Below are positions 6,233 through 57,037 of a stretch of DNA of 64,000 nt, piece after piece (positions within the stretch are counted from its first letter, which is position 1; each line of letters begins with the position of its first letter). Source of the stretch: an uncultured Candidatus Saccharibacteria bacterium (GTDB lineage: Bacteria; Patescibacteriota; Minisyncoccia; Phycocordibacterales; UBA1006); assembly GCA_964592365.1 (NCBI GenBank), contig CAZQDL010000001.1, positions 79,541 through 143,540 on the forward strand, read 5' to 3'. The notes under the pieces are model-generated. The model worked only from the letters and a program-made list of their open reading frames with translations. It was not told the origin of the DNA and did no database searches. A program made the translations under genes and the position numbers.

Positions 6233-6305
6233 TCCCCCTGGAAGGGCTCGAACCTTCGACCGTCAGCTTAAAAGGCTGCTGCTCTACCGACTGAGCTACA
6301 GGAGG
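6233..6305 (-). tRNA. tRNA-Lys (anticodon UUU)
   Basis: Manual cloverleaf fold of the reverse complement. Acceptor stem CCTCCTG/CAGGGGG, D-arm GCTC-AGTCGGTA-GAGC, anticodon loop CTTTTAA, T-arm GAAGG-TTCGAGC-CCTTC, discriminator A. Confidence 0.8.
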
Positions 6306-13955: not shown

Positions 13956-14031
13956 GGTGACTATGGTATAACGGTTATTACTCGGGTTTGTGGTACCTGC
14001 AATCAGGGTTCGATTCCCTGTAGTCACCCCA
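13956..14031 (+). tRNA. tRNA-His (anticodon GUG) with a genome-encoded G-1 and an encoded 3' CCA
   Basis: Manual fold. G-1 at 13956. Acceptor stem GTGACTA/TAGTCAC, anticodon stem-loop CGGGT-TTGTGGT-ACCTG, T-arm CAGGG-TTCGATT-CCCTG, discriminator C, then CCA. Confidence 0.8.
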
Positions 14032-45062: not shown

Positions 45063-47420
45063 GTGTTTATGAACTCAACAGAAGATCAATTACGATCATT
45101 ACAGGAATTTACACGACTTACTAATTATTTATCAGCAGCACAAATATTCTTGCGTGATAATATTTATCTTGAAAATCCACTAACTTTTCAAGATTTAAAA
45201 AGAAACTTACTCGGTCACTGGGGAACTTGCCCAGGTATTAATCTTATCTATGCTCATACCAATCGTTTGATTGTGAAAAATGAGGATAGGGATTTTTTAC
45301 TGGTTGTAGGTCCTGGTCATGGTTTTCCTGCATATCAAGCAGGTATCTTTGTCGATGGGGCGGTTTCTGAAATGAATGAGAACATTCCCTATTCCAAAAA
45401 AGGTTTGGAAGAGTTGGTTAAAAAATTCTCAATTCCTTATGGTTTTCCTTCTCACTTAAACCCTGAAGCACCGGGAGTAATTTTAGAAGGTGGAGAACTT
45501 GGATATTCACTTTCTGTTTCTGCAGGATCAGTACTTGATAATCCGAAGTTAATAACTGTCTGTATCGTGGGTGATGGTGAAGCAGAAACAGGAACCCTTG
45601 CTTCTTCTTGGCATATTAATAAATTTATCTCACCACTTACTGACGGAGCTGTATTACCAGTACTTCATCTCAATGGTTACAAAATATCAGGGCCTACCAT
45701 ATTTGGAAGAATGTCTAATGAAGATCTCTACAGTCATTTTAGTTCTTTGGGGTATGAACCACTATTTATCGAAGCAGATGCTTTTCCTGATATGCATAGT
45801 CATGCATTACCAGCTTTTGATATGGCCTATGAAATGATTGTTTCTATTCAAGAAAATTATAGAAAGGAAATAGATACAGCCTTTCCTCGATGGCCACTTA
45901 TCATTTTAAAAACTCCAAAGGGGCTTACTGCACCAACTGATGTATCAGGAAAGAGAATCGTAGGAAATCATTTCTCACATCAGGTAGTGTTTGATGATTT
46001 GCAAACTAATGAAAGTAATCTTTCTTTGTTAGAAGGATGGTTATCTTCATATCAACTTCATGAACTCATTAGCTTCAATGAAGATGGGGGAATAGTATTA
46101 AGTGATTCAATTCAAAAACTTATTCCAAGAAAAGAACGTTCGTTAGGTTGTTCTCCTTATGCTCATGGGAAATTTACCAAAGAAGCAAAAGTACCATCTT
46201 TTGATGAGGTATATACCGATCAAGAACCTGTGTTTGAGCATGGAGATAATGCTATGAAAGAAACAGGGAAGTATATGAAATCACTTATCGAACTCGGAAA
46301 TGATTTCAGACTTTTCTCCCCTGACGAAACGTATTCAAATCGTTTAGAAGATATTTTTGGAGCAACAAAACGAGTATGGCTTCTTCCTCAAAAAGATTTT
46401 GATATGGATATGGCAAAATCTGGTCGGGTGATAGAAATGCTATCTGAAAATGTTCTGTTTGGAATGATGTGGGGATATTCGTTAACAGGAAGACGTGGTT
46501 ACTTTGTTAGTTACGAGGCCTTTGCTCAAATTATTAGTTCAATGGCAAATCAATACGTAAAGTTCATTAAAATTGCTCGTAACGTACCTTTCAGAGAACA
46601 TGTCCCTTCAGTAAATATTATCCTTTCTTCATTATTGGAACGACAAGATCATAATGGATTTTCACATCAAAGCCCCTCACTTATTTCTTCCCATACAGAT
46701 TATGATTTAGATATTAGACATATCTATTTCCCAGCAGATAAGAATCTTATGAAATGTGCTATGGAAAAAACAATGACTTCGTATAATAAATTGAATGTTA
46801 TTGTTTGCGGGAAAAAGATGACGAGAACATGGTTAACAAAGGAAGAAACAATACAACAAGCAGATGATGGAATTATGATATGGAATAGTTACTCTGATGA
46901 AAATCCAGATGTAGTTGTGGTAACTGCTGGTGACTATGTTACCGAAGAAGCCATTGCAGGAATGAAAATTATCAAAGAAAAAATTCCAGAAGTTAAGGTA
47001 AGATTTATCAATCTCTTTGATCTCAATGTACTTTCAGAAACTGACGAACGTTTTAGTACCCAGGAATTGATTGAAAAATTTTTTACTGCAGATAAAGGGA
47101 TTGTATTTAATTTCCATGGATATCCTTCTACCATTAAAAAATTGTTATTCAATTATGGAATTTCAGAAAGAATAATTATTAACGGATATAAAGAAGAGGG
47201 CTCAACAACTTCACCGTTTGATATGAAGGCGCGAAATAATCTATCTCGATTCCATTTACTTGCAGATGTTTCTACCCTTGCTTGTAAGTTTGGTGATGTA
47301 TCTCAAAATACATGTAACCTTATGGTGGATTACGCAGAAGAACTATTAGGTTGGGAAAAACGATGTATTGTTGAAAATGCAGTTGATCCAGATTCAATTC
47401 AACAGTGGGATAAAGCATAA
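45063..47420 (+). CDS. xfp: Xylulose-5-phosphate/fructose-6-phosphate phosphoketolase
   Basis: LLGHWGTCPGINLIYAH signature. About 785 aa, with TPP-enzyme-like regions. Confidence 0.85.
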   Translation: MFMNSTEDQLRSLQEFTRLTNYLSAAQIFLRDNIYLENPLTFQDLKRNLLGHWGTCPGINLIYAHTNRLIVKNEDRDFLLVVGPGHGFPAYQAGIFVDGAVSEMNENIPYSKKGLEELVKKFSIPYGFPSHLNPEAPGVILEGGELGYSLSVSAGSVLDNPKLITVCIVGDGEAETGTLASSWHINKFISPLTDGAVLPVLHLNGYKISGPTIFGRMSNEDLYSHFSSLGYEPLFIEADAFPDMHSHALPAFDMAYEMIVSIQENYRKEIDTAFPRWPLIILKTPKGLTAPTDVSGKRIVGNHFSHQVVFDDLQTNESNLSLLEGWLSSYQLHELISFNEDGGIVLSDSIQKLIPRKERSLGCSPYAHGKFTKEAKVPSFDEVYTDQEPVFEHGDNAMKETGKYMKSLIELGNDFRLFSPDETYSNRLEDIFGATKRVWLLPQKDFDMDMAKSGRVIEMLSENVLFGMMWGYSLTGRRGYFVSYEAFAQIISSMANQYVKFIKIARNVPFREHVPSVNIILSSLLERQDHNGFSHQSPSLISSHTDYDLDIRHIYFPADKNLMKCAMEKTMTSYNKLNVIVCGKKMTRTWLTKEETIQQADDGIMIWNSYSDENPDVVVVTAGDYVTEEAIAGMKIIKEKIPEVKVRFINLFDLNVLSETDERFSTQELIEKFFTADKGIVFNFHGYPSTIKKLLFNYGISERIIINGYKEEGSTTSPFDMKARNNLSRFHLLADVSTLACKFGDVSQNTCNLMVDYAEELLGWEKRCIVENAVDPDSIQQWDKA

Positions 47421-47440
47421 TCACCGAAAGGTGATTTTTG
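47419..47440 (+). terminator. Terminator (AATCACC-GAAA-GGTGATTTTTG)
   Basis: Read directly. Confidence 0.55.
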
Positions 47441-47458
47441 TTATATACTAAAGAACGT

Positions 47459-48475
47459 ATGAATACCCTTGTAATCAATCCAGGATCAACTGGAATTAAA
47501 TACAAAATCTTTGATGCAAATGCTCAGGTTTTGGACGCAAAAAAGATAAGTCTTGTCACTTTAAATCAAGAACATCCCTTTGATCAGTATTCAGAGACTA
47601 TTAGCAAAATTGTTGTGAGAGTTGTTCATGGTGGAAACCTTAGCTCCCCTCAACTTCTTAGTGATGAAAATGAAAAGATCGTAACTGAGTTTTTAGATTT
47701 TGCCCCTATACACAATAAATTATCTCTTGAGGTGATTAATTTCTTGAAAAAAGAATTTACCAATATTCCTATTTATCTATATTTTGATACTTCATTTCAT
47801 ACTAATATCCCACTTCATATAAGAAGCTACGCTATTCCAAAAGAGTTAGCCTTGAAACATAAACTATACCGCTATGGCTTCCATGGAATTGCAATTGAAT
47901 CAGCTTTATCTCAAGTACAAGAAGATAATGATAGTTTACCTGAACATATTATCTGTGTTCACTTAGGAGGGGGTTCATCGGTAACAGGGGTTTTAGAAGG
48001 AAAATCTATATATACCAGTATGGGTTTAACACCTCTTTCAGGGTTGATGATGGTAACTCGCTCAGGAGATGTTGATCCTGATATGCCACGCATCATATCG
48101 CAAAAAGAAAACCTTGACATGCAATCAGTTTCAGAATTACTAAATTACAAAAGTGGATTTCTTGGCCTAACAGGAAGTACTGATACACTTGAAATATTTT
48201 CTGAAGCACAGGAGGGTAACAGTGAAGCAAAACTTTCATTTGATATGTATGTATCAGCAATAGTGCGAGAAATATTTTCAGCTTATGCTGAGCTCCAAAA
48301 AGTCGATGCTATTACCTTCTCGGGTGGTATTGGGTATGGAAATGAATATTTAAGATCATCAGTGATGCAAAAAATTTCACCACTTAATATACCTTCAGAT
48401 AATATATTTGTGGTTGATGTAGATGAAGAGCTACTCATGTATGAAAAGGTACAAAACTATGAAAAAGAGCGTTAG
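47459..48475 (+). CDS. ackA: Acetate kinase
   Basis: N-terminus LVINPGSTGIKYKIF. Motifs VVHGG and HLGGGSSV. The ATG at 47459 lies 9 nt downstream of TATACT; the TTG at 47438 in the ORF track is an artefact. Confidence 0.75.
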   Translation: MNTLVINPGSTGIKYKIFDANAQVLDAKKISLVTLNQEHPFDQYSETISKIVVRVVHGGNLSSPQLLSDENEKIVTEFLDFAPIHNKLSLEVINFLKKEFTNIPIYLYFDTSFHTNIPLHIRSYAIPKELALKHKLYRYGFHGIAIESALSQVQEDNDSLPEHIICVHLGGGSSVTGVLEGKSIYTSMGLTPLSGLMMVTRSGDVDPDMPRIISQKENLDMQSVSELLNYKSGFLGLTGSTDTLEIFSEAQEGNSEAKLSFDMYVSAIVREIFSAYAELQKVDAITFSGGIGYGNEYLRSSVMQKISPLNIPSDNIFVVDVDEELLMYEKVQNYEKER

Positions 48476-49275: not shown

Positions 49276-50259
49276 ATGAAAACAATACTTACCTTACTTC
49301 TTGGAATAATTACACTTCTTCCTAAAAATGCACTAGCCCATGTTCGATATCTTTCAAGTGAATTAGAACAACGTAACTATGGACAATCAAACTTTGATAT
49401 CTTTTTTGCACCACTTCAGGATCCTAAATATGTGGTTATGATCTTAGCAACAATATTTATTATCATCCTTGTATATTGGTACTGTGATCATAATAGGTAT
49501 ATCCATAAGTGGACAGACCATATGACAAAGATAGGGGAATCATACAAACAGTTCATCCCTTGGATTACCAGATTGTCATTGGGTATTCTTCTTATCAGTG
49601 GTGCAACCAATGCATTCCTTATTTCTCCAGTAGTTGAAAATGGATCGACGTTCATTTCATTGGTTCAGCTTGTCACTGGATTCTTCTTAATGGCTGGCTT
49701 CCTTACCGGAATATCAGCAGTTGTAGCTTTATTCTTGTTCACCTATGCACTTTTCCAAGATCCATACCTTATCGGATCATTTGATATTCTTGCCCTTATC
49801 TTATCCCTCTTCGCTTTAGATAGTAGAAGACCAGGAGTTGATGATATTCTTGATATACCAGATTGGTTACATGAAAAAAAGATACGAGAATATCTCCCTA
49901 CGATTTTAAGGGTTGGAGTAGGTATAGGAATGAGTTATCTTGCCTTTGTTGAAAAAATCCTTACCCCAGAATTAGCATCACTCGTTGTTGAACGATCAGG
50001 ACTTATTGAAGTTATTCCAGTTTCTTCTGGTATGTGGACTTTCTCAGCAGGAATTATTGAACTTCTTGTTGGGTTAATGTTGATTGTCGGTTGGAAAACA
50101 AGAATTGCATCAGTTGCAGCTTTAGTTATCCTTTCACTATCCTTCTTCTATTTTGGTGAAGATGTAAGTTCCCATGTAACTCTCTTTGGAATTCTTTCCG
50201 CTGTATTTATTCTGGGAGTTGGAAAGTTAGGTATTGATGCTCCTCATACGGTGAAGTAA
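49276..50259 (+). CDS. Polytopic membrane protein (DoxX-like?)
   Basis: Signal peptide plus about 7 TM helices. Confidence 0.4.
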   Translation: MKTILTLLLGIITLLPKNALAHVRYLSSELEQRNYGQSNFDIFFAPLQDPKYVVMILATIFIIILVYWYCDHNRYIHKWTDHMTKIGESYKQFIPWITRLSLGILLISGATNAFLISPVVENGSTFISLVQLVTGFFLMAGFLTGISAVVALFLFTYALFQDPYLIGSFDILALILSLFALDSRRPGVDDILDIPDWLHEKKIREYLPTILRVGVGIGMSYLAFVEKILTPELASLVVERSGLIEVIPVSSGMWTFSAGIIELLVGLMLIVGWKTRIASVAALVILSLSFFYFGEDVSSHVTLFGILSAVFILGVGKLGIDAPHTVK

Positions 50260-50312
50260 AAAGCGATGCTAAAAGCATGGCTTTTTATATAGGGTAATGA
50301 AGACATATCTTG

Positions 50313-50318
50313 TATAAT
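50313..50318 (+). promoter_or_regulatory. -10 box TATAAT (preceded by TG), 6 nt upstream of the ATG at 50325
   Basis: The TTG start at 50310 in the ORF track falls inside this box. Confidence 0.5.
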
Positions 50319-50324
50319 TTAAGT

Positions 50325-50663
50325 ATGAAATCATTTGATGAATTACGAGATCAGATTAAAGAATTTTGTGACAACAGAGATTGGGCTTCGTTCCACGACC
50401 CTAAAAATCTAGCACTATCATTGCAGCTGGAATCTTCAGAAGTACTTGAATTATTCCAATGGACAAAAGATAACGAAATTAATCCTGAAAAATTAAGTGA
50501 ACTTCCTTCAGAACTAGCTGATGTCTTTTATTGGCTTATTCTTCTTTCAGAGAAATATAACATTAATCTTTTTGAGGCACTTGAGGAAAAGATGAAGCAA
50601 AATGAATTAAAATACCCAATTGAAAAATCAAAAGGGGTAAGTACCAAGTACACTGATTTATAG
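50325..50663 (+). CDS. MazG-like nucleotide pyrophosphohydrolase (small YpjD-type)
   Basis: ELRDQIKEFCDNRDW…HDPKNLALSLQLESSEVLELFQW…ELADVFYWLILLSEKYNINL matches the all-alpha NTP-PPase pattern. Confidence 0.65.
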   Translation: MKSFDELRDQIKEFCDNRDWASFHDPKNLALSLQLESSEVLELFQWTKDNEINPEKLSELPSELADVFYWLILLSEKYNINLFEALEEKMKQNELKYPIEKSKGVSTKYTDL

Positions 50664-50664
50664 T

Positions 50665-52230
50665 ATGTCTCATATAAAAAAATTTAAATTTGATAAGCAA
50701 TATTTTAACGAAATTAGATCTTATCGTTTTGGAAAGAATTGGCCGGTTGTATATTTGTTATCAAATAAAAAAGAATTATATGTCGGAGAAACAATTAATG
50801 CTTTTTTGAGAAGTAAACAACACTATGAGAGAGAAGAACGGGCTAAATTAGATGATATACATATCATAACTGATGAGGAATATAACAAATCAGCTGCACG
50901 TGATATTGAATCATTGCTTATTCAAAATTTTGTAGCAGATGGAAAATATCTTATTCAAAATGGTAATGCAGGTTTACAAAATCACAATTACTATGAACGT
51001 GAAAAATACCTTGCAAAGTTTGAGGTAATTTGGGAGGAATTACGGAAGCTTGATATGGCTCATAAGAGCTTACATGAGATAAAGAATTCAGACCTTTTTA
51101 AATATTCACCATACAAATCACTTACCGATGATCAAATGTCTGTTGTGAATAATATTTTTCATGATTTGGTTCATGAGAATTCAGATACCTATATCGTTCA
51201 CGGTAGACCAGGAACAGGAAAAACTATTGTTGCTGTTTATCTCATGAAATTTCTTAAGGAACATAAGAAAACAAAAAATCTATCTATAGCACTTGTTGTT
51301 CCTATGACAGGACTACGAAAAACCTTAAAAAAAGTTTTTAGAAATGTAGCTGGATTATCATCCTCAATGATTATCGGTCCAAGTGATGTAATAAGAAATA
51401 AATATGATGTCTTGTTGGTAGATGAAGCACATAGATTAAAGAAAAGAAAAAATATCACGAATTTTCAATCGTTTGATCTAACGAATAAATATTTTAATTT
51501 AGGGAATGACGGTACTGAACTTGATTGGATTATGAGATCTTCGTCACATCAAATATTTTTCTATGATGAATTTCAAAGTATCAGACCTTCAGATATTGGG
51601 CACCAAGCTTTTAAAGAACTATCAGCAAAGAATATTGAATTAAATTCTCAAATGAGAGTTCAAGCTGATGGTGATTATATTCAGTTCATTGAAGATCTCT
51701 TTGATCCTGAATCTAAAAGGCAACATCACTTTAATGAATATGAAATACGAATGTTTGATGATATTTCAGAAATGTATCAAACCATTAAAGAAAAAGATAA
51801 AGAACATGGACTTTCACGAATGGTTGCGGGGTATGCATGGCCGTGGAAAACCAAGAAAGATAGGAATGCATATGATATTGAAATAGATGGCCTTAATATG
51901 CGATGGAATAGTACAACAGGGGATTGGGTCAATTCAGCAAATGCACTTAATGAAATTGGATGTATTCACACTGTTCAAGGATATGACCTTAATTATGTGG
52001 GGGTAATAATTGGATCAGAAATTTCATTTGATGAAGAACAACGAAAGATAGTTGTTGATAAGAGTAAATATTTTGATGCAAATGGAAAACGTTCAATTGA
52101 GAATAAAGAAGAGTTGCAAAGATATATCATTAATATTTATAAAACTTTGTTAACTCGTGGAATTAGAGGAACATACATCTATGTTATCGATGAGAAATTA
52201 AAAAAGTTTTTTAGGGAAACATTAAAATAA
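50665..52230 (+). CDS. GIY-YIG nuclease domain fused to a DUF2075-type P-loop ATPase
   Basis: N-terminus VVYLLSNKKELYVGETINAFLRSKQH (GIY-YIG). Walker A HGRPGTGKT, Walker B LLVDEAHRL. About 520 aa. Only a 1 nt gap after the MazG-like gene. Confidence 0.6.
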   Translation: MSHIKKFKFDKQYFNEIRSYRFGKNWPVVYLLSNKKELYVGETINAFLRSKQHYEREERAKLDDIHIITDEEYNKSAARDIESLLIQNFVADGKYLIQNGNAGLQNHNYYEREKYLAKFEVIWEELRKLDMAHKSLHEIKNSDLFKYSPYKSLTDDQMSVVNNIFHDLVHENSDTYIVHGRPGTGKTIVAVYLMKFLKEHKKTKNLSIALVVPMTGLRKTLKKVFRNVAGLSSSMIIGPSDVIRNKYDVLLVDEAHRLKKRKNITNFQSFDLTNKYFNLGNDGTELDWIMRSSSHQIFFYDEFQSIRPSDIGHQAFKELSAKNIELNSQMRVQADGDYIQFIEDLFDPESKRQHHFNEYEIRMFDDISEMYQTIKEKDKEHGLSRMVAGYAWPWKTKKDRNAYDIEIDGLNMRWNSTTGDWVNSANALNEIGCIHTVQGYDLNYVGVIIGSEISFDEEQRKIVVDKSKYFDANGKRSIENKEELQRYIINIYKTLLTRGIRGTYIYVIDEKLKKFFRETLK

Positions 52231-52257
52231 ACCTCAAAGCGAAAGCCTTGAGGTTTA
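52229..52257. terminator. Bidirectional terminator (AACCTCAA-N10-TTGAGGTT)
   Basis: Lies between convergent genes. Confidence 0.55.
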
Positions 52258-52845
52258 TTTTTTCTTCTTAACAGAACTAAGAAGGGATACAGATATTGAT
52301 ATGATAACAATAGCAACAACAACAAGTATCAAGTTGTCACCAAATAGTGATGATAGATAGTTTCCACCCCAGATTCCACCAATAGCCCAGAGGTATGAAG
52401 CAATAATAGTATATGATAAATATTTTAATGTATTCATTTTTCGAGCTCCTGCGAATAGGGAAGGAGTTGATCTAATTACTGGAAGTAATTTTCCTAAAAT
52501 GATAACGAGAGCCGCATGCCTATCAAAAAGATCCCACTTCTTAGCATGTTTTTCATGATAAACCATATCGTGTACCCATTTAATGTGAAGCATTTTTTTT
52601 CCAAAGAAGAATCCTACAAAGTCACCAATGGTACTTCCAATCGCTATGATATGTATAGCAAGCCAAGGATTGATAACACCTTCTTTAGATAGACCACCAA
52701 TAAGGATAGCAATAGTTCCCCCAGGAAGAAACGAACCAATGATTGGTAAACCTTCTCCAAAAGCTAGAAGGAAAATCATAATGTTTCTCCATATAGGAGA
52801 AACAGAGAGAAATATTTCGATGATACTATTATTTAGAGATTCCAT
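52255..52845 (-). CDS. DedA/SNARE-associated family membrane protein
   Basis: LLAFGEGLPIIGSFLPGGTIAILIGGL matches the DedA signature. Confidence 0.7.
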   Translation of the reverse strand: MESLNNSIIEIFLSVSPIWRNIMIFLLAFGEGLPIIGSFLPGGTIAILIGGLSKEGVINPWLAIHIIAIGSTIGDFVGFFFGKKMLHIKWVHDMVYHEKHAKKWDLFDRHAALVIILGKLLPVIRSTPSLFAGARKMNTLKYLSYTIIASYLWAIGGIWGGNYLSSLFGDNLILVVVAIVIISISVSLLSSVKKKK

Positions 52846-56637: not shown

Positions 56638-56701
56638 ATGGTCATCATAGCCTAATAGCTGTTTATAGGAAATAAAAAGAAGCTCTCATGAGCTCCTTTT
56701 C

Positions 56702-56905
56702 TTATTCCCATTCGTCTTCTTCGTCTTCGTCTAGGTCATCAAAATCCTCTAGATCATTATCTTCTTCTTCATCATCATCAAACTCATCCTCCATGTCCTC
56801 GTCATATTCTTCTTCAATAGGGTATCCATCTTCATCGTACTGCATTGTTAAGAAGGCATTCCCCCAAAGATTAATGTCTAATATATTCATCATGGTAATT
56901 GTCAT
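56702..56905 (-). CDS. Small highly acidic protein (67 aa, D/E-rich)
   Basis: GAA/GAT-rich codons read in the minus sense, and a terminator hairpin at 56676..56695 placed for the minus strand. The overlapping plus-strand Ser-rich ORF (56688..56930) is rejected. Confidence 0.35.
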   Translation of the reverse strand: MTITMMNILDINLWGNAFLTMQYDEDGYPIEEEYDEDMEDEFDDDEEEDNDLEDFDDLDEDEEDEWE

Positions 56906-57037
56906 AATGGTATTACGTAATTCAATATAAATAAGATTAATAACCTAGAAACTAGGTTGAGGGAATTATTTCAGATTTCAGGAAAAAATACAAATAGTTT
57001 TACTTGGTTTTTTCTATTCTGTTGGTAAACTCAATGT

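Follow-up and report, generated by a model that had tools for sequence, protein, structure and literature searches.

A two-gene unit between terminator-like hairpins

The window analysed here is a 64,000-nt stretch of contig CAZQDL010000001.1 from an uncultured Candidatus Saccharibacteria bacterium, and this report concerns two adjacent plus-strand genes within it, which encode a MazG-like protein and a predicted nuclease-helicase. Gene 1 (50325..50663; ATG at 50325, TAG at 50661-50663) encodes the MazG-like protein of 112 amino acids. Gene 2 (50665..52230; ATG at 50665, stop codon at 52228-52230) encodes a protein of 521 amino acids, in which a predicted GIY-YIG nuclease domain precedes a DUF2075/Schlafen-group-3 helicase domain of superfamily 1B (SF1B). 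The two genes are separated by a single base (50664). An earlier note on this DNA had described a MazG-like open reading frame (ORF) followed at this distance by an ORF of 521 amino acids; the coordinates were confirmed, and the same two genes are present in an independent Joint Genome Institute (JGI) gene call of the same contig. The base composition is unremarkable.

Sequence reading and RNA folding revealed a hairpin on either side of the pair. The upstream one, on the plus strand at 50256..50288, is terminator-like and followed by a U-run (-16.2 kcal/mol, z=-6.0 against shuffled sequences); it closes the preceding gene (49276-50259) and sets the upstream boundary of the two-gene unit. The downstream one, at 52228..52257, lies between T- and A-runs and folds on both strands (-15.1 kcal/mol, z=-5.4 on the plus strand; -17.8 kcal/mol, z=-5.2 on the minus strand). 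It is common to gene 2 and a convergent DedA-family gene (52255-52845, minus strand), marks the downstream boundary of the unit, and is probably a bidirectional terminator. With nothing between them, the two genes are most naturally read as a single transcription unit. The operon that the earlier note had suggested from the tight coupling thus fits both the position of the pair between the hairpins and its conservation across phyla (see below).

The same reading detected TGTATAAT, an extended -10-like element at 50311..50318 on the plus strand that ends 6 nt ahead of the gene 1 start codon and is a possible promoter of a leaderless or near-leaderless transcript. No Shine-Dalgarno sequence was read ahead of gene 1 or gene 2. 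The position of TGTATAAT, the absence of a Shine-Dalgarno sequence and the 1-nt gap suggest a leaderless message with coupled translation. A scan for consensus promoters and terminators reported neither the hairpins nor TGTATAAT, which has no match to a -35 element.

Gene 1 encodes a predicted DCTPP1-type pyrophosphohydrolase

The gene 1 protein matched the Pfam family PF12643 (MazG-like) at E=1.2e-13 and 51.5 bits (cut-off 27). Its closest relative among PDB sequences was the Archaeoglobus pyrophosphatase 4qgp (3.5e-22), followed by mouse RS21-C6/DCTPP1 (2a3q; 3.3e-20), and human DCTPP1 (7mu5) was matched at 2.1e-14. The earlier note had called the small protein a MazG-type nucleoside triphosphate (NTP) pyrophosphohydrolase, which agrees with these matches and can be narrowed to a DCTPP1-like protein. 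The alignment with DCTPP1 runs end to end and includes the C-terminal KYTDL of the gene 1 product, where sequence comparison defines a KY..L motif. The metal ligands of the EXXE...EXXD signature are E36, E39, E63 and D66, corresponding to E63, E66, E95 and D98 of the mouse protein. In 100 partner proteins from related loci, E36, E39, E42, W46, E63, D66, K89, Y97, G104, K108 and Y109 were 100% conserved. As the metal ligands are retained in all 100 partners and the alignment with DCTPP1 is complete, the sequence identifies gene 1 as an intact all-alpha (d)NTP pyrophosphohydrolase of the DCTPP1 type. Judged by homology, its substrates are likely to be dCTP and 5-modified dCTPs. In NCBIfam, neither the gene 1 nor the gene 2 protein had a match near any curated cut-off.

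Gene 2 encodes a predicted GIY-YIG nuclease fused to an SF1B helicase

The motifs quoted for the 521-amino-acid protein in the earlier note, namely VVYLLSNKKELYVGET with downstream R, H and E, GRPGTGKT and LLVDEAHRL, are all present in gene 2, and the fusion of a GIY-YIG domain with DUF2075 that it had proposed is borne out by the profile and model comparisons as follows. The GIY-YIG core extends over 50746..50994 on the plus strand (residues 28-110) and contains Y30, Y39-V-G41, R49, H53, E82 and N99, the motif block being VVYLLSNKKELYVGET...R49...H53...E82. The window protein itself scored 17.6 bits against PF01541, which is under the cut-off of 22.6. The cut-off was passed by relatives, with 24.9-30.2 bits for those from loci L116, L119, L120 and L124 and 26.7 bits for that from L016 (L numbers denote loci carrying relatives), and PF01541 is assigned to many relative fragments in precomputed annotation. 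In an alignment of 33 relatives (33-58% identity), Y39, G41, R49, H53, E82 and N99 were invariant and Y30 was nearly so. A profile of the domain gave weak matches to T4 endonuclease II, I-TevI and UvrC.

An AlphaFold model of residues 1-140 (predicted local distance difference test (pLDDT) 90.4) showed the order beta-beta-alpha-beta-alpha, with strands at 28-33, 37-43 and 64-69 and helices at 46-54 and 75-92. Foldseek placed this model on the UvrC GIY-YIG domain with a probability of 0.90-0.96, at an E of only ~0.1; the superposition gave a target-normalised template-modelling (TM) score of 0.64-0.67 and a root-mean-square deviation of 2.6-2.9 A, and the N-terminal domain of UvrC was the closest structural match. 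Because relatives pass the cut-off, the catalytic set is invariant, the profile matches known members and the fold superposes, the assignment of the N-terminus as a predicted GIY-YIG nuclease domain holds despite the score of 17.6 bits. The earlier note had considered that its GIY-YIG call would fail without profile support; such support is provided by the relatives' scores together with the fold.

The helicase core occupies 51187..52191 on the plus strand (residues 175-509) and was defined by PF09848, Walker A, Walker B and R498. PF09848 (SLFN-g3_helicase, equivalent to DUF2075) matched at E=1e-72 and 245.8 bits over model positions 3-354 of 354. Walker A (GRPGTGKT) was read at 51202-51225 (residues 180-187), and the DEAH of Walker B at 51421-51432, within LLVDEAHRL at residues 250-258. 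G180, G183, G185, K186, D253, E254, H256, Q329, R331 and the arginine finger R498 were invariant in the alignment of relatives. The full-length AlphaFold model of the protein (pLDDT 87.5, predicted TM score 0.83) had RecD2, Dda, coronavirus nsp13, Upf1 and human SLFN11 as its top Foldseek matches (E 1e-10 to 1e-8), and SLFN14 was matched as well. Since the best fold matches are SF1B helicases and SLFN11, the model indicates that the DUF2075 domain is a helicase-type SF1B motor and not an AAA ATPase. Of the description as a Schlafen/AAA-like ATPase in the earlier note, the Schlafen group is thus retained, and the AAA-like part is replaced by the SF1B fold. Sequence searches of the gene 2 protein against the PDB, with the single sequence and with a family profile, gave nothing useful for the helicase, returning only the P-loops of RecG and myosin, and no sequence-level match of the gene 2 protein to solved SLFN structures was obtained.

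The two genes form a conserved cassette

Relatives of the pair were compared in 26 genome loci, taken from contigs of one genome per species, and in 80 metagenome loci at 41-59% identity, 77 of which were testable for the partner gene. The genome loci belong to Saccharibacteria, Paceibacteria/Nomurabacteria, Peribacteria, several Bacteroidota and a Clostridiales metagenome-assembled genome. The MazG-like gene was found directly upstream of the helicase gene on the same strand in 25 of them and directly downstream in the remaining one. Among the metagenome loci, 66 have it upstream and 6 downstream of the helicase gene, another 3 have it within ~1-2 kb, 2 lack it and 3 were untestable. The survey of distribution and neighbourhood that the earlier note had proposed therefore gave adjacency in 26/26 genome loci and 72/77 testable metagenome loci. 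Loci of the candidate phyla radiation (CPR) type have the small gene first, with a gap of 0-5 nt, and in one subclade the order of the genes is reversed and the adjacency retained. When the comparison was started from relatives of the MazG-like protein, a DUF2075 helicase gene came after them in 3/3 independent cases. Over 94 loci, the pairwise distance matrix of one protein correlates with that of the other (r=0.53, Mantel p<=0.001). The same arrangement was found at 35% identity on megaplasmids of the Bacillus cereus group, and a MazG-like neighbour also stands beside more distant DUF2075 helicases in a few contigs of a viral collection. At 50% identity the family comprises 502 clusters (E<=1e-30), and at 90% the candidates scored form nearly 8,000. 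The pair is a conserved two-gene cassette in CPR bacteria, Bacteroidota and Firmicutes, and its recurrence in ~100 independent loci indicates that the adjacency is not due to chance.

A second DUF2075 subtype, with an N-terminal domain of ~260 residues, also has a MazG-like neighbour. Copies were found at L130:4351-6645, L118:4275-6161, L121:4281-6152, L120:2755-4542 and L090:2541-4910, and in L090, L103 and L120 this subtype and the GIY-YIG one are arranged in tandem. The MazG-like neighbour in L130 is 66% identical to gene 1 of the window, and the N-terminal ~260 residues of the L130 helicase had no Pfam or PDB match. The occurrence of a MazG-like gene beside this second subtype suggests that the partnership is with the helicase module. 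Helicase genes of the family without a MazG-like partner are rare and were found in L096, L102 and L032 (Paenibacillus plasmid NZ_CP145893, 4522-7581). In L096 and L102 an aldo-keto reductase gene lies upstream of the helicase gene, and in L032 the helicase gene adjoins that of a MrcB_N + HNH protein, a predicted methylcytosine-dependent nuclease. A MazG-like gene broken into two frames beside an intact helicase gene was found in one further assembly (L030:7654-7997), as compared with L029:7641-7997 from the same population; the break reflects a frameshift or else an error of assembly.

Variable context and mobility

Clustering of the ORFs of 112 loci showed that the MazG-like and helicase genes are the only genes in common and that the flanks vary. 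A relative is present in 109 plasmid records, 70 of which are from the Bacillus cereus group; on pIS56-233, for example, the pair lies among HNH, zeta-toxin and ImmA/IrrE genes. The pair thus behaves as a horizontally mobile cassette. The earlier note had held that a universally conserved, syntenic core context would point to housekeeping; the pair, with its differing flanks and plasmid copies, does not lie in such a context. Relatives were found in only 4/50,697 phage records and on 9 IMG/VR contigs, most of them distant, and the view that the pair is phage-borne was rejected.

Genes associated with type IV restriction recur next to the cassette. A NUDIX gene and a gene for a PLD-SF2-helicase-DUF3427 protein, which is the architecture of SauUSI, stand beside the pair in L033, L051, L068, L076 and L089. 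The sixth locus with a SauUSI-type neighbour is on a 54-kb mobilizable plasmid of Lactiplantibacillus plantarum (L124; NZ_CP028230, 3595-8990), where the NUDIX, type IV enzyme, MazG-like and GIY-YIG-DUF2075 genes form one array on the same strand. The type IV enzyme of this plasmid matched the PADLOC model mREase_IV over its full length at 1.6e-262. Loci of this kind carry two parallel pairs of a pyrophosphatase and a nuclease-helicase. Other defence-type neighbours of the cassette are MrcB_N-HNH, GmrSD_N, EVE and NOV_C proteins, C5 cytosine methylases, PemK/MazF and zeta toxins, Fic/RhuM, Panacea antitoxins and a Schlafen AlbA_2 protein.

Two other genes accompany subsets of the loci. In 8-10 Bacteroidota-type loci with otherwise different flanks (L016:2654-4636, L053, L061, L075, L082, L092, L095 and L097; also L090 and L103), a gene for a TPR-repeat protein lies directly upstream of the MazG-like gene, and this protein may be a third component of the Bacteroidota-type subtype. 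In 12 CPR-type loci (L003-L006, L009, L010, L025, L034, L035, L042, L049 and L050), the cassette has a gene for a TspO/MBR-family membrane protein of ~135 amino acids no more than 5 kb away, in varying position and on either side.

A LexA-type domain in the majority of relatives

About half of the closest homologues of the gene 2 protein are ~675 amino acids long and carry a Peptidase_S24 domain. A GDSM signature past residue 500 was found in 63/111 family members (~57%), and 43/111 are shorter than 600 amino acids. The C-terminus of the long form aligned with residues 71-199 of E. coli LexA at E=8e-17, and the alignment retains the cleavage-site region (PLVGSAPCGNPLL vs PLVGRVAAGEPLL), the catalytic Ser and the catalytic Lys. 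Self-cleavage of LexA and UmuD is stimulated by RecA on single-stranded DNA. Since these features are preserved, the long forms are probably switched in the same manner, that is, through self-cleavage brought about by RecA on single-stranded DNA. The window protein has no S24 domain; it stops at residue 521, and the terminator follows. As it ends about where the linker to S24 would start, it is a naturally short form without the switch.

Surroundings of the locus in the window

The flanks of the pair in the window encode a phosphoketolase, an acetate kinase, a PNPOx-like protein, a membrane protein, DedA, alanine racemase and an ABC transporter. The genes for phosphoketolase (XFP) and acetate kinase form a tandem just upstream (window 45063-48475) and, together with the best homologues, fit a fermentative CPR/Patescibacteria bacterium. 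Contigs of at least five further samples carry a near-identical stretch of 8.3 kb. Farther away, a serine-rich ORF of 80 amino acids (56688-56930, plus strand) overlaps an acidic, D/E-rich ORF of 67 amino acids (56702-56905, minus strand); both are of low complexity, and the minus-strand ORF was called as a gene by JGI. The tRNA genes at 6233-6305 (minus strand) and 13957-14028 (plus strand) were the sole Rfam matches at the gathering threshold in the 64 kb.

Possible roles of the pair

We lean slightly towards the view that the pair is a mobile two-gene module directed against phages or other foreign DNA. In favour of this view are the conserved pairing, the mobility, the defence-type neighbours, the precedent of Nhi and Nhi-like proteins, the linkage of SauUSI-like genes to NUDIX, the invariant catalytic residues of both enzymes and the LexA-type C-terminus of the long form. 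The gene 2 protein would be an ATP-driven nuclease-helicase built on the Nhi or Nhi-like plan. Its SF1B DUF2075 motor would engage DNA that is probably single-stranded or in replication and then move along it with a presumed polarity, and the GIY-YIG domain at its N-terminus would introduce nicks or cuts into the target, which may be degraded, as with Nhi. In this proposed division of labour, the gene 1 protein would convert (d)NTPs into (d)NMP and pyrophosphate and so control the pool of non-canonical cytosine nucleotides. It may thereby starve phages that build modified DNA, or prevent modified nucleotides that were salvaged during the degradation of foreign DNA from entering the host chromosome and making the host a target, or both; the same logic may apply to the unexplained NUDIX partner of SauUSI.

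Several observations weigh against this role in defence. Modification dependence is deduced purely from neighbour genes, as modified-base readers occur only there and in some loci; in the gene 2 protein no Pfam match to a modified-base reader (SRA, EVE/PUA, DUF3427, MrcB_N) was found, and a modification-dependent version of the module is weakened by this lack of a detectable reader. Conservation is high for a defence gene, with ~59% identity between deep CPR lineages. The neighbours in the window are housekeeping genes without meaningful PADLOC matches, and the locus is clonal, five further contigs differing by 0-4 mismatches in 8.3 kb, so that presence/absence polymorphism is not demonstrable. 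In PADLOC, to which the earlier note had pointed as a check, gene 2 gave partial matches to Nhi and AbiO, no full-length model of v2.0.0 covers its product, and gene 1 had 0 matches to the v2 models. Some neighbours in other loci are repair or nucleotide enzymes (Pur_DNA_glyco, a methylpurine glycosylase; Ham1; NUDIX), and the neighbour tallies are raw counts without a genome-wide background and hence suggestive rather than statistical. A LexA-type domain and a house-cleaning dNTPase would suit a DNA-damage role equally well. The choice between defence and housekeeping that the earlier note had left undecided has thus been narrowed and not settled.

The main alternative explanation is that the pair serves in the response to DNA damage or in its repair, which we consider a serious possibility, though on the whole an unlikely one. 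The DCTPP1-like enzyme would clear damaged or non-canonical dCTP (oxidised, halogenated or methylated), and at lesions or stalled forks the GIY-YIG helicase would carry out incision and unwinding, in the manner of the UvrC GIY-YIG domain in excision repair; the LexA-type domain would link the long forms to SOS, and the module may replace missing repair functions in small CPR genomes. The structural proximity of the nuclease domain to the N-terminal domain of UvrC, the homology of gene 1 to DCTPP1, the intact LexA-type autocleavage module in 63/111 relatives and the high sequence conservation all agree with such a role. So do the housekeeping context in the window and in L028, the occasional Pur_DNA_glyco, Ham1, NUDIX and methionine sulfoxide reductase (PMSR, SelR) neighbours, and the action of eukaryotic SLFN11, a fold match of the helicase, at stressed replication forks (summarised in PMC6765204). 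A repair role is, however, difficult to reconcile with the patchy distribution over phyla and the non-syntenic flanks, with plasmid-borne relatives such as those on the Bacillus megaplasmids and the mobilizable Lactiplantibacillus plasmid, and with the repeated placement of the pair beside type IV restriction enzymes, methylases, toxins and Fic/RhuM; moreover, both nuclease-DUF2075 proteins that have been studied experimentally are anti-phage. The plasmid-borne relatives, the small gene placed first with a gap of 0-5 nt in CPR-type loci and the PemK/MazF, zeta toxin, Fic and Panacea neighbours would also be expected of a selfish or addiction module. In that case the nuclease-helicase would be toxin-like, with the MazG-like enzyme as antidote or regulator, for instance through hydrolysis of a nucleotide needed to activate the nuclease, and the module would stabilise plasmids or islands or serve in competition between mobile elements, protection of the host not being its function as such; the association of the MazG-like partner with the second DUF2075 subtype, whose N-terminal domain is different, is also compatible with this. 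We regard an addiction module as improbable, since the helicase gene occurs without an intact partner in L096, L102, the Paenibacillus plasmid copy and the assembly with the split MazG-like gene, which is not expected if the partner were an essential antidote. In addition, the catalytic site of the MazG-like protein is strictly conserved, which argues for an enzyme rather than a binding antitoxin, and the locus is stable and chromosomal in the population of the window. That the two are unrelated housekeeping genes brought together by chance is hardly credible: only the housekeeping neighbourhood of the window would suggest it, and it is refuted by an adjacency kept in ~100 loci across phyla despite changing flanks and gene order.

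A wider generalisation may be put forward, which we regard as rather doubtful in its full extent. NTP-driven nuclease-helicases acting on foreign DNA would generally be paired with a dedicated dNTP pyrophosphatase, SauUSI with NUDIX and the DUF2075 helicases with a GIY-YIG or another N-terminal domain with a DCTPP1-like MazG protein, and the two would form a two-layer system on the nucleotide pool and on the DNA polymer. Phage-type modified dCTPs would be destroyed by the pyrophosphatase, which would also protect the host genome from acquiring the marks that the nuclease attacks. Most nuclease-helicases would be armed by RecA-dependent self-cleavage of the LexA type, a bacterial counterpart of the way in which Schlafen-11 couples a related helicase to replication stress. 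Should the pairing logic hold, it would explain a loose end of 15 years, the NUDIX neighbour of SauUSI, and would suggest as a general rule that nucleotide-pool sanitation is tied to the restriction of modified DNA; it would also offer a testable bacterial model for the coupling of Schlafen-type helicases to single-stranded-DNA or damage signals. The cassette is among the few candidate defence modules widespread in CPR/Patescibacteria, whose defence repertoires are poorly known, and the Bacillus and Lactiplantibacillus plasmid versions make it experimentally accessible.

Comparison with known systems

In the gene 2 protein, as in Nhi and AbiO, a nuclease domain at the N-terminus is joined to a DUF2075 helicase of SF1B type. 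Nhi of Staphylococcus epidermidis (SERP2475) combines PD-(D/E)XK and DUF2075 and is reported to be anti-phage and to block the accumulation of phage DNA (Bari et al. 2022). Nhi-like proteins, which combine a NERD (PF08378) nuclease with DUF2075, were anti-phage in the screen of Millman et al. (2022). The PADLOC models for Nhi (PDLC02372; 3.2e-18) and AbiO (3.2e-16) matched gene 2 in the first half of the helicase core; the match is partial, residues 142-381 aligning with model positions 173-377 of 470, and the same holds for the relatives. Matches to the candidate models PDC-S14 and PDC-S41 were limited to the GIY-YIG region or the C-terminal half of the helicase. Nhi has a PD-(D/E)XK nuclease in place of GIY-YIG and is described as a single-component system, whereas the gene 2 family has a near-obligatory MazG-like partner and, in most members, a LexA-type domain. 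Nhi-like proteins share the predicted plan of an N-terminal nuclease and DUF2075, but their nuclease is NERD and neither a MazG-like partner nor an S24 domain has been described for them. Because the model matches are only partial and the nuclease is different, the gene 2 family is not Nhi and is not covered by PADLOC v2.0.0. Membership in PD-T4-3, PD-Lambda-1 or other GIY-YIG defence proteins was rejected, as no PADLOC matches to them were obtained.

For at least 60 SauUSI-like genes, Xu et al. (2011, PMC3141236) reported linkage to a gene for a MutT/NUDIX pyrophosphohydrolase whose function is not known. The resemblance to the present pair lies in an NTP-dependent nuclease-helicase beside a small nucleotide pyrophosphohydrolase. 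The components differ: SauUSI joins a PLD nuclease and an SF2 helicase to a DUF3427 reader of modified cytosine, whereas gene 2 has GIY-YIG, SF1B and no recognisable reader, and the partner is NUDIX in the former and all-alpha MazG-type in the latter. Gene 1 shares EXXE...EXXD, W20, W46 and the C-terminal KYTDL with DCTPP1/RS21-C6 and the Archaeoglobus protein 4qgp, but I11 replaces H38 of the mouse enzyme, the protein is bacterial and has 112 amino acids, and its gene forms an operon with that of a nuclease-helicase, an arrangement not known for DCTPP1. In LexA and UmuD the S24 peptidase resembles that of the long-form relatives in its cleavage region, Ser and Lys; in the latter, however, its fusion partner is a nuclease-helicase and not a DNA-binding domain.

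In the library searched, no paper was found to describe the pairing of MazG-like and DUF2075 genes, and the sole mention found of the GIY-YIG-DUF2075 fusion was by Lutz et al. (2019), who gave it one sentence and noted DUF2075 genes beside those of DUF3427 restriction proteins. The group III Schlafen proteins SLFN11, SLFN5 and SLFN14 belong to the same Pfam family (PF09848) as gene 2, and SLFN11 and SLFN14 match its fold, but gene 2 lacks their AlbA_2 RNase domain; the recently described bacterial Schlafen defence proteins concern that nuclease domain and not the DUF2075 helicase. The gene 2 family is thus placed as a sister of Nhi and Nhi-like proteins with a helicase that is a bacterial relative of the human Schlafen helicase domain, and it brings three previously undescribed features: a near-obligatory DCTPP1-like partner, a LexA-type domain in most members, and repeated placement side by side with SauUSI-type systems.

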